Positions 396-62,700 of a stretch of 64,000 nt of DNA are shown piece by piece; the stretch's first letter is position 1, and each line of letters begins with the position of its first letter. The notes beneath the pieces are model-generated. The model was not told the origin of the DNA and did no database searches. It saw only the letters and a program-made list of their open reading frames with translations. The stretch is from NCBI RefSeq assembly GCF_003790525.1, contig NZ_CP033635.1; one strand, 5' to 3'. The position numbers were made by a program, and so were the translations under genes. The DNA is from Escherichia coli (lineage in GTDB: Bacteria; Pseudomonadota; Gammaproteobacteria; Enterobacterales; Enterobacteriaceae).

Positions 396-525
396 AATGT
401 CTACCGCGTGATGGCTGTCACGCGGTATTTCGTTTCGTCACGTCAAAACTGACGACAGCCTGTTTTTCGTCAGAGTTTTGAATAAATAGTGCCCGTAATA
501 TCAGGGAATGACCCCAAATAAAATG

Positions 526-541
526 TGGCATAAAAGATGCA
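526..541 (+). promoter_or_regulatory. sigma54 (-24/-12) promoter of fdhF
   Basis: TGGCATaaaagATGCA matches the GG-N10-GC sigma54 consensus about 50 bp upstream of the fdhF ATG; direct repeats containing CGTC/GACG at about 421..473 resemble the FhlA upstream activating site. Confidence 0.6.
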
Positions 542-2833: not shown

Positions 2834-3523
2834 ATGAAAAAAATTATCGCATTGATGTTGTTTTTGACATTCTTTGCCCACGCGAACGACTCCGAGCCTG
2901 GCAGCCAGTATTTAAAGGCAGCAGAGGCTGGGGACCGACGCGCACAATATTTTCTTGCCGACAGCTGGTTTAGCTCCGGCGATTTGAGCAAAGCCGAATA
3001 TTGGGCACAGAAAGCCGCCGACAGCGGTGATGCTGATGCCTGCGCGCTGTTAGCGCAGATCAAAATCACCAATCCGGTCAGTCTGGACTATCCACAAGCA
3101 AAAGTTCTTGCAGAGAAAGCGGCGCAAGCGGGCAGTAAAGAAGGTGAAGTAACGCTGGCGCATATTCTGGTAAATACGCAAGCGGGTAAACCGGATTATC
3201 CAAAGGCGATTTCGCTGTTAGAAAACGCCTCGGAAGATCTGGAGAACGACTCTGCCGTCGATGCCCAAATGCTGCTTGGTTTGATTTACGCCAACGGCGT
3301 GGGCATTAAGGCCGACGATGACAAGGCAACCTGGTATTTCAAACGCAGCTCTGCGATTTCCCGAACCGGTTATTCCGAGTACTGGGCGGGAATGATGTTC
3401 TTAAACGGTGAAGAAGGTTTTATCGAGAAGAACAAACAGAAGGCGCTGCACTGGTTGAATCTGAGCTGTATGGAAGGGTTTGATACCGGGTGTGAAGAGT
3501 TTGAAAAATTAACTAACGGTTAA
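2834..3523 (+). CDS. yjcO: Sel1/TPR-like repeat periplasmic protein
   Basis: 229 aa ORF with signal peptide and repeated Sel1-like A-x-A-Q/YxLA motifs; position between fdhF and gltP. Confidence 0.85.
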   Translation: MKKIIALMLFLTFFAHANDSEPGSQYLKAAEAGDRRAQYFLADSWFSSGDLSKAEYWAQKAADSGDADACALLAQIKITNPVSLDYPQAKVLAEKAAQAGSKEGEVTLAHILVNTQAGKPDYPKAISLLENASEDLENDSAVDAQMLLGLIYANGVGIKADDDKATWYFKRSSAISRTGYSEYWAGMMFLNGEEGFIEKNKQKALHWLNLSCMEGFDTGCEEFEKLTNG

Positions 3524-3675
3524 TGTAGGCCTGATAAGACGCGTTAATCGTCGCATCAGGCGTTGATGTCGGATGCGGCGTAAACGCCTTATCCGACCTA
3601 CAAAATCACGCTAAATCAGGCTATTGCGCTGTCTGACGTAGGCCTGATAAGACGCGGCAAGCGTCGCATCAGGCA
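3524..3675. repeat. REP/BIME cluster (palindromic units)
   Basis: Repeated GTAGGCCTGATAAGACGCG...CGCATCAGGC and GCCGGATGCGGCGTAAACGCCTTATCCG units in inverted orientation. Confidence 0.85.
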
Positions 3676-14103: not shown

Positions 14104-14222
14104 TTGCCGGATGCGATCCGGGCAACAAGTCGGAAACGATTTGTAGGCCTGATAAGACGCGACAGCGTCGCATCAGGCATTGATTGCCGGATGCGGCATA
14201 TAACGCCTTATCCAGCCTACAT
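14104..14222. repeat. REP/BIME cluster
   Basis: GCCGGATGCG... and GTAGGCCTGATAAGACGCG...CGCATCAGGC units between acs and yjcH. Confidence 0.85.
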
Positions 14223-19911: not shown

Positions 19912-20052
19912 ATCAACACCAACCGGAACCTCCACCACGTGCTCGAATGAGGTGTGTTGACGTCGGGGGAAACCCTCCTGTGTACCAGCGGGATAGAGAG
20001 AAAGACAAAGACCGGAAAACAAACTAAAGCGCCCTTGTGGCGCTTTAGTTTT
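19912..20052 (+). ncRNA. sraL: Small RNA SraL (RyjA), convergent with and overlapping the 3' end of soxR
   Basis: Intergenic ghxP-soxR region ending in hairpin AAAGCGCCCttgtGGCGCTTT plus T-run on the + strand; sequence matches my recollection of SraL; 5' end approximate. Confidence 0.5.
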
Positions 20053-34916: not shown

Positions 34917-35159
34917 TTAGTAACGCCAGCGGTCATAACGCTGATATTTCGGCACTTTTGGTGCTTTAATCGCCTTAATAACCCACACCACCGCAACCGC
35001 CAGTAGTAACCACGGCAGCAACTTAATCATCAATGCCAGCATACCGCCGAGGAACATAATGGCCGTCGCCACAACCAGCGCGGCGATAATGCCCAGCAAC
35101 GAAACGCCGGTGACCATCAGCATGACAAAAAAGCCAATCACAAAAAGTAGTTCCAGCAT
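34917..35159 (-). CDS. pspG: Phage shock protein G
   Basis: 80 aa hydrophobic protein MLELLFVIGFF... ending KYQRYDRWRY. Confidence 0.85.
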   Translation of the reverse strand: MLELLFVIGFFVMLMVTGVSLLGIIAALVVATAIMFLGGMLALMIKLLPWLLLAVAVVWVIKAIKAPKVPKYQRYDRWRY

Positions 35160-35193: not shown

Positions 35194-35210
35194 TTACAAG
35201 AATCATGCCA
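35194..35210 (-). promoter_or_regulatory. sigma54 promoter of pspG
   Basis: Minus-strand TGGCATgattcTTGTAA (GG-N10-G[TC]) about 35 bp upstream of the pspG start. Confidence 0.55.
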
Positions 35211-35292
35211 AAAATAATCTATTGATTTAACAGCAAAACGCCCCGCGACGGTGCGCAGGGCGTGGTGAATTTGACTACTTTTTGGTGAAAAG

Positions 35293-60258: not shown

Positions 60259-60568
60259 AACAATTTCCCTTCATTGAATGAATGGAGATTTACCCAAAAA
60301 CATTTCGGGCGGGATCGAGTATACACAACTAAAGCATGCGAATTACGGCGCGGGTAATTAGTGATGGGGTTTTAGGATAATTGGAATGAATATCAAATAT
60401 AAGCTTCAGATTATATATAAATAACACTAAAAATCATAAGCTTAAAATAAAAATAAAAGTAATTAATCTGCGTATTTTCCGAAATCAATCACGATTAAAA
60501 ATCTATTTTAGGATTAACCTCACGGTATGATTTCCGTTAAATCACAGACAAGGGGATTTATCTGATAA

Positions 60569-60600
60569 AAAATGCCGACATAACGTCGGCATTTTTATTA
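60569..60600. terminator. Bidirectional terminator downstream of pgi
   Basis: AAAAAATGCCGACataaCGTCGGCATTTTTATT. Confidence 0.8.
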
Positions 60601-60611
60601 GGGTTATTTAA

Positions 60612-62261: not shown

Positions 62262-62504
62262 TAGCAATACTCTTCTGATTTTGAGAATTGTGACTTTGGA
62301 AGATTGTAGCGCCAGTCACAGAAAAATGTGATGGTTTTAGTGCCGTTAGCGTAATGTTGAGTGTAAACCCTTAGCGCAGTGAAGCATTTATTAGCTGAAC
62401 TACTGACCGCCAGGAGTGGATGAAAAATCCGCATGACCCCATCGTTGACAACCGCCCCGCTCACCCTTTATTTATAAATGTACTACCTGCGCTAGCGCAG
62501 GCCA

Positions 62505-62700
62505 GAAGAGGCGCGTTGCCCAAGTAACGGTGTTGGAGGAGCCAGTCCTGTGATAACACCTGAGGGGGTGCATCGCCGAGGTGATTGAACGGCTGGCCAC
62601 GTTCATCATCGGCTACAGGGGCTGAATCCCCTGGGTTGTCACCAGAAGCGTTCGCAGTCGGGCGTTTCGCAAGTGGTGGAGCACTTCTGGGTGAAAATAG
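62505..62700 (+). ncRNA. Lysine riboswitch (L-box) in the lysC leader
   Basis: Long structured 5' leader (about 320 nt) upstream of lysC containing AGAGGCGC...TTGCC...GGAGGAGCCAG L-box-like core; aptamer boundaries approximate. Confidence 0.65.

Follow-up and report, generated by a model that had tools for sequence, protein, structure and literature searches.

The window analysed here, a 64-kb stretch of Escherichia coli DNA, opens with the 3' end of mdtP and continues across a 197-bp intergenic region into fdhF. RefSeq annotation of matching E. coli DNA gives mdtP and then 'fdhF, formate dehydrogenase H subunit alpha, selenocysteine-containing', and the gene order mdtP, fdhF, yjcO is common to the window and K-12. 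The selenocysteine codon of fdhF is an in-frame TGA at 1010-1012, and a bacterial SECIS hairpin at 1005-1059 matches Rfam SECIS_2 with 87.1 bits against a gathering score of 70. The mdtP–fdhF intergenic stretch is present in 5419 of 5426 complete E. coli genomes (megablast of positions 300-800), with at least 99% identity in 5345 records. K-12 MG1655 differs from the window at 2 of the 221 positions between 380 and 600, A403G in the stem of a terminator hairpin and A516C in the spacer, and both differences fall outside the enhancer and −24/−12 elements described below. Because this segment is near-identical and the elements are untouched, the experimental literature on K-12 transfers directly to the window. 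The features of the region are as follows, with distances given from the predicted transcription start.

9-395, + strand: 3' end of mdtP (outer-membrane efflux subunit), stop codon TAA at 393-395; from the open reading frame list and RefSeq annotation
402-437, + strand: intrinsic terminator of mdtP, hairpin arms 402-411 and 418-427, then the T-rich tail TTTCGTTTCG
416-422, + strand: putative distal enhancer half-site TGTCACG (containing the first GTCACG), at about −133; column conservation about 70-80%, flanks unconserved
434-457, + strand: enhancer core TTCGTCA-CGTCAAAACTGACG-ACA; a conserved island and the best FhlA-matrix match in the region
463-482, + strand: putative proximal enhancer element TTTTTCGTCAG, then AGTTTTGA; CGTCA at 468-472, about −82; from conservation of 463-473 and the repeats
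494-504, + strand: conserved spacer block CGTAATATCAG, at about −58, halfway from the enhancer to the −24 element
525-541, + strand: sigma-54 (RpoN) −24/−12 promoter GTGGCATAAAAGATGCA; from exact match, RpoN matrix, ChIP-seq identity and conservation
552-592, + strand: predicted transcription start (552 ± 1) and 41-nt 5' UTR, with Shine-Dalgarno GGAG at 581-584
593-2740, + strand: fdhF coding sequence (formate dehydrogenase H, 715 codons); open reading frames 593-1012 and 1061-2740 share a frame, and RefSeq agrees

mdtP is the upstream neighbour and lies outside the fdhF control module. We take a minus-strand open reading frame at 418-609 (63 aa) to be spurious, since it runs across both the promoter and the start of fdhF and has nothing in its support. 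Rfam identifies no RNA family within the mdtP–fdhF intergenic region; its other matches in the window are the sraL sRNA (19912-20052), the STnc430 sRNA (60455-60603), a lysine riboswitch (62498-62694) and three REP-like naRNA4 elements (3528-3598, 14146-14217 and 48622-48692). The junction just 3' of fdhF is strain-variable: yjcO, encoding a Sel1-repeat protein (window 2834-3523, as in K-12), is replaced in strain SK1144 by an ABC-transporter substrate-binding gene (locus L001, 5816-6501).

The sigma-54 promoter

An earlier note, made from the letters of this DNA, had placed a −24/−12 match at 526-541, and TGGCATAAAAGATGCA (TGGCAT-AAAAG-ATGCA) is found there on the plus strand, at precisely that position. 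It is the sole exact match in the window, with 0.08 expected by chance, and the GG at 527-528 and GC at 539-540 have the canonical sigma-54 spacing of exactly 10 bp between them. Relative to TGGCAC-N5-TTGCW the fdhF promoter departs at two positions, C6 to T and T12 to A. We scanned the whole 64 kb with an RpoN matrix derived from 186 promoters and an FhlA matrix derived from 13 sites (both from PMC7658346), the two scans that the earlier note had proposed. With the RpoN matrix, 526-541 is the top site of the 64 kb at 13.5 bits; the margin is small, as several other sites score 13.0-13.2, chance or intragenic ones reaching 13.2. Similarly, the sigma-54 consensus with one mismatch allowed occurs at 12 sites in the window against 12.3 expected. 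By itself the motif is not significant, only suggestive, and the fdhF site is convincing because it is conserved and is occupied in published data, rather than because of the motif alone.

GTGGCATAAAAGATGCA is the sequence of the intergenic ChIP-seq peak OS41, which Bonocora et al. 2015 (PMC4591121) assigned to fdhF at high occupancy (FAT 41); they predict the start 41 nt from the gene and mark the promoter as one with experimental confirmation in EcoCyc. RpoN holoenzyme also binds the fdhF-mdtP spacer in genomic SELEX (gSELEX peak, PMC8743547). In Salmonella the orthologous sequence TGGCATAAAACATGCATA is bound by sigma-54 in ChIP-chip, fdhF mRNA is 29-fold sigma-54 dependent, and FhlA is named as the activator (PMC3844500). 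Together with conservation in 77 of 80 orthologous loci (see below), these three sets of observations bear out the assignment of a sigma-54 promoter to fdhF.

The promoter is intergenic and points toward fdhF, whose ATG at 593 leaves only a short leader. From the position of the GC at −13/−12 we infer a transcription start at 552. Bonocora et al. place the start 19 nt beyond the motif centre (PMC4591121), which gives 533 + 19 = 552, and 593 − 552 = 41, in exact agreement with both their rule and their listed distance. The finding that the earlier note had named as refuting, a mapped start that does not fit the −12 element, is made less likely by the EcoCyc flag. A promoter scan of positions 300-700 found no sigma-70-like promoter.

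There is a second sigma-54 promoter in the window, TTGGCATGATTCTTGTA at 35195-35211 on the minus strand, located upstream of pspG (ATG at 35159) and downstream of dusA. It is the third-ranked RpoN-matrix match in the window and is identical to the published ChIP-seq site OS40 (PMC4591121), with a predicted start 25 nt from the pspG ATG.

The upstream repeat cluster

The earlier note had also described an array of GTCACG- and CGTCA-type repeats in inverted orientation between 421 and 473. The repeats are real, including the inverted pairs, but the left edge needs correction: the cluster begins at 416/417, and a boundary at 421 cuts through the first GTCACG. TGTCA is present at 416, CGTCA at 436, 441 and 468, TGACG at 450 and CGACA at 453. 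GTCACG recurs as a direct repeat at 417 and 437, and TTTCGTCA does so at 433 and 465; the inverted pairs include CTGACGA/TCGTCAG and TCAAAACT/AGTTTTGA, the AGTTTTGA of the proximal element being the inverted copy of TCAAAACT at 443-450. This density is not random. The segment 416-473 contains six YGTCR words, both strands counted together, which is the maximum of all 63,943 58-bp windows in the 64 kb and is reached here only, and its four CGTCA/TGACG words within 38 bp are likewise a unique maximum of the 64 kb.

The core of the cluster has a compact organization. The CGTCA at 436-440, which overlaps the second GTCACG (437-442), abuts a perfect palindrome CGTCA-N4-TGACG at 441-454, and the CGACA at 453-457 overlaps the right end of this palindrome. 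Its centre lies at approximately −104.5 from the predicted start.

At its left end the cluster runs into the terminator of mdtP. The terminator contains a 10-nt perfect inverted repeat, is matched in a terminator scan, and has a predicted RNA fold of −18.1 kcal/mol (z = −4.1), with none of 200 shuffled sequences equally stable. The GTCACG of the distal half-site (417-422) sits in the 3' arm of this hairpin, so that in E. coli the bases at 417-422 serve two purposes. K-12 has G rather than A at 403, giving a G-U pair in the terminator stem.

The 1989 deletion analysis by Birkmann and Böck reportedly located the UAS at roughly −143 to −110. We take this to correspond to approximately 409-442 in the window, presumably spanning both GTCACG hexamers. 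The phylogenetic footprint described below reaches further downstream than that interval, to 473.

Conservation of the control region and relationship to the FhlA regulon

We scanned one genome per species and recovered 80 fdhF loci from more than 20 genera of Enterobacterales, including Escherichia, Salmonella, Citrobacter, Klebsiella, Enterobacter, Kosakonia, Kluyvera, Shimwellia, Atlantibacter, Franconibacter, Arsenophonus and others. The 78 distinct upstream regions were aligned with MAFFT and conservation was computed for each column. TGGCAT-N5/6-TGCAT is kept in 77 of the 80 loci, 51-84 bp before the ATG, and column identity over 525-543 is 88% in the 78-sequence alignment. Two islands stand out upstream of it, 434-456 with a mean conservation of 82% and most columns at 90% or above, and 463-473, which is conserved at a level of at least 80-90%; the Shine-Dalgarno region is 85% conserved. 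The background, measured upstream of 416 in the mdtP 3' end and terminator region, is approximately 31-33%.

Of the 78 promoter-bearing sequences, 77 have the core pattern YGWCR-N4-TGWCG within the first island. Its half-sites are fixed and its central four bases are free (12 spacer variants), which we read as the hallmark of a protein that binds DNA as a dimer. Core and TGGCA are separated by either 85/86 bp (69 loci) or 76/77 bp (8 loci), and no other value is found; the enhancer–promoter spacing is thus quantised by one helical turn, as is expected if the activator on the DNA has to be turned towards the polymerase across a short loop. Further half-sites are placed with similar regularity: in 72 of 77 loci a TCGWCA follows the start of the core at exactly 26 bp, and in 64 of 77, most of them loci without mdtP, a GTCAY precedes the core by 21-25 bp.

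Three of the eighty loci have lost the promoter. The −24/−12 element is destroyed in Entomohabitans, a Leclercia sp. and Enterobacter sp. BIGb0383 (at approximately 1200-1500 in loci L076, L080 and L083), and the same three eroded loci keep remnants of the enhancer and of a CCCGTAA block. Phytobacter massiliensis (L057) has a weakened control region, with TGGCAA and the core CGTCAAATCTGGCG. These eroded regions suggest that regulation of fdhF has been lost or rewired in those lineages.

The spacer between enhancer and promoter contains a further conserved segment at 494-504. In 59 of the 78 sequences the pattern CGTAWNVTC precedes TGGCA by a constant 32-33 bp; it corresponds to an alignment block at approximately 492-503. 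A strict IHF consensus is found in the spacer of just 2 of the 78 sequences, and on that count an IHF site was rejected as the explanation for 494-504. The literature that we searched contains no assigned factor or function for this block, and a search on ModE and molybdate yielded no site in fdhF. Effects of nitrate, oxygen and molybdate on fdhF have been reported. To judge from its conservation and position, the block might be an undescribed third control element, a reading that we regard as doubtful and put forward tentatively. An architectural protein or a repressor might bind there, perhaps one through which nitrate, oxygen or molybdate acts on fdhF; alternatively, the block could be a further low-affinity FhlA contact. 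If there were such a third element, the one-turn spacing would reflect a three-part nucleoprotein complex and not a simple loop.

In many genera the sequence ATACCCACAAT lies directly upstream of the −24 element (window 507-524), and TACCCAC is found 17-18 bp before TGGCA in 26 of the 78 sequences. TACCCAC resembles a NarL-type heptamer (TACYYMT). Escherichia has diverged at this position (ATGACCCCAAAT).

The activator to which these elements point is FhlA, which is reported to bind upstream of fdhF and hyc and to be activated by formate (PMC11291172), and whose C-terminal helix-turn-helix binds one face of the DNA (PMC11291172; PMC11841067). fdhF is a member of the formate-FhlA regulon (PMC11841067), the activity of the Proteus mirabilis fdhF promoter needs both fhlA and rpoN (PMC7658346), and, according to a citing paper, Birkmann & Böck (1989) characterised a cis element that formate induction requires. 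We compared the fdhF enhancer with three other regulon promoter regions of K-12, the hyc-hyp intergenic region and the regions upstream of hydN and hyfA. YGWCR words are abundant at hyc-hyp (7, with 1.9 expected) and hydN (6, with 1.3 expected), whereas the region upstream of hyfA is not enriched (2, with 2.3 expected). The 14-bp pattern YGWCR-N4-TGWCG is present at all three, as TGTCGATGATGTCG, CGTCACTAGTGTCG and CGACACGGGTGTCG respectively, and lies upstream of TGGCA by 87 bp at hycA, 75 bp at hydN and 109 bp at hyfA, compared with 85 bp at fdhF. By chance this pattern is expected at a rate of about 1 in 65,536 for each position and strand, and the 64-kb window contains it once; because it was formulated after viewing these sequences, finding it again at the other regulon promoters is in part a circular argument.

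The fdhF control region thus resembles those of hycA, hypA, hydN-hypF and hyfA in combining a sigma-54 −24/−12 promoter with a cluster of YGWCR words that includes YGWCR-N4-YGWCR, located 75-109 bp upstream of TGGCA. The spelling and number of the half-sites differ, however, with TGTCG/CGACA predominating at hyc-hyp and hyf and CGTCA at fdhF. Moreover, hyc and hyp share one divergent intergenic region, unlike fdhF, and IHF reportedly acts at hyc and hyp, whereas the fdhF spacer lacks a good IHF consensus.

The published descriptions of FhlA sites fit the fdhF enhancer poorly. The FhlA half of the matrix scans proposed in the earlier note did not single out the region: the best enhancer site, at 441-454, scores 8.06 of 17.3 bits, and many chance matches elsewhere score higher, up to 13.98, so the matrix was dropped as a discriminating test. 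The consensus of Leonhartsberger et al. 2000, CATTTCGTACGAAATG in the form quoted in PMC4987338, has no full match in the fdhF enhancer, where the best alignment has mismatches at 7 of 16 positions, and it fits hyc-hyp, hydN and hyfA in their native form no more closely (6-7 mismatches). Half-site-like words that resemble this consensus do occur, TATTTCGT at 426-433, CGTTTCGT at 431-438 and TTTTTCGT at 463-470, and three of the 38 copies of TTTCGT in the whole window are in the enhancer. We read the poor fit as a weakness of the published descriptors and not as evidence against FhlA. The suggestion of an FhlA-type enhancer made in the earlier note accords with the footprinted cluster, its helical phasing to the −24 element, its likeness to other FhlA-regulon promoters and the FhlA binding reported in the literature.

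E. coli has about 12 enhancer-binding proteins (PMC8743547), which raises the question as to whether another of them is the main or an additional user of this enhancer. The most plausible candidate is the FhlA paralogue HyfR, since the same core pattern lies upstream of hyfA, whose operon encodes HyfR; some other factor recognizing CGTCA words could be proposed in the same way, and the weak fit of the FhlA matrix and consensus to fdhF would be accommodated by either. However, the literature consistently gives fdhF to FhlA, fhlA is required in both E. coli and Proteus, and the sharing of a motif is to be expected for paralogues and does not displace FhlA. We therefore consider it very unlikely that the enhancer serves such a protein in this sense; use by HyfR as an addition to FhlA is possible.

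The proximity of the mdtP terminator offers a different account, in which the repeats are no more than terminator sequence plus the chance recurrence of short GC-containing words, and there is no enhancer. The hairpin (402-427) and the T-rich tail do overlap the first GTCACG and the TTTCGT repeats, and short repeats in two copies are often due to chance. Nevertheless, the most conserved part of the cluster, 434-473, is outside the hairpin, the word density is the maximum of the window, and the cluster lies at distances from the −24 element that differ by one helical turn. The decisive comparison is with genomes that have other neighbours. mdtP is upstream of fdhF in only 14 of the 80 loci; the other 66 have different upstream genes, in either orientation, and keep the core, the half-site at +26 and in most cases the GTCAY at −21 to −25. 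The control module therefore belongs to fdhF, and because it is conserved in loci without mdtP the explanation by terminator and chance is excluded for practical purposes, with scarcely any probability left to it. That the −24/−12 match is a transcriptionally silent sigma-54 site, with fdhF transcribed from some other promoter, is the least credible account of all, for while most E. coli sigma-54 ChIP sites are intragenic and without known function (PMC4591121), and the matrix score here is no better than that of non-promoter matches in the window, the fdhF site is intergenic, correctly oriented, carries the EcoCyc-confirmed flag with a predicted start 41 nt from the ATG, is kept at a near-fixed distance in 77 of 80 orthologues and paired with a phased enhancer, and has no sigma-70-like competitor in 300-700, and fdhF of Salmonella is 29-fold sigma-54 dependent (PMC3844500).

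Formate-dependent activation of fdhF

We conclude that this is almost certainly the native control region of E. coli fdhF, consisting of a sigma-54 promoter and an FhlA enhancer. Sigma-54 RNA polymerase would occupy 525-541 as a closed complex, unable to open the DNA alone. FhlA, an AAA+ ATPase enhancer-binding protein active at millimolar cytoplasmic formate, would bind the CGTCA-type half-sites within approximately 416-473 and oligomerise on the cluster centred on the palindrome at 441-454, about 104 bp upstream of the start. Looping of the spacer of approximately 50 bp would then allow FhlA to touch sigma-54, with its ATP hydrolysis opening the promoter, and the transcript, begun near 552, would carry a leader of 41 nt ahead of the ATG at 593. 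The present analysis shows the sequence elements, with their non-random density, conservation and helically phased spacing, and their presence at other FhlA-regulon promoters. In this scheme the occupancy by sigma-54 and the dependence on FhlA and formate are taken from the literature; the particular half-sites contacted by FhlA, the exact start nucleotide and the geometry of the loop are predictions.

The general arrangement is shared with other sigma-54 promoters such as glnAp2 (NtrC), norV (NorR), and pspA and pspG (PspF), all of which have GG-N10-GC, a silent closed complex, and an activator located 70-150 bp upstream that acts through looping and ATP hydrolysis. What differs at fdhF is the recognition sequence and the formate signal, which are specific to FhlA, and a −12 region that reads ATGCA compared with the TTGCW consensus of the generic promoters. 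The fdhFp promoter and FhlA UAS of K-12 (Birkmann & Böck 1989; Schlensog et al. 1994; Leonhartsberger et al. 2000) are the same locus, and nothing substantive differs between them and the elements described here.

Both the promoter and the enhancer of fdhF are already known, and the result is confirmatory and carries little weight as a discovery. Among the enhancer-dependent sigma-54 systems that do not serve nitrogen control, the fdhF promoter is a classical one; work on it goes back to the late 1980s, and it serves as the standard reporter of intracellular formate. The earlier note recognised a real regulatory module from raw sequence, and the comparative data show which of its bases are under selection: the palindrome CGTCA-N4-TGACG, the half-sites at approximately −22 and +26, and the helical phasing to the −24 element. 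This description fits the native sites better than do the FhlA matrix and the idealised consensus in print, and might be useful for predicting FhlA sites in other Enterobacterales or for designing formate biosensors.
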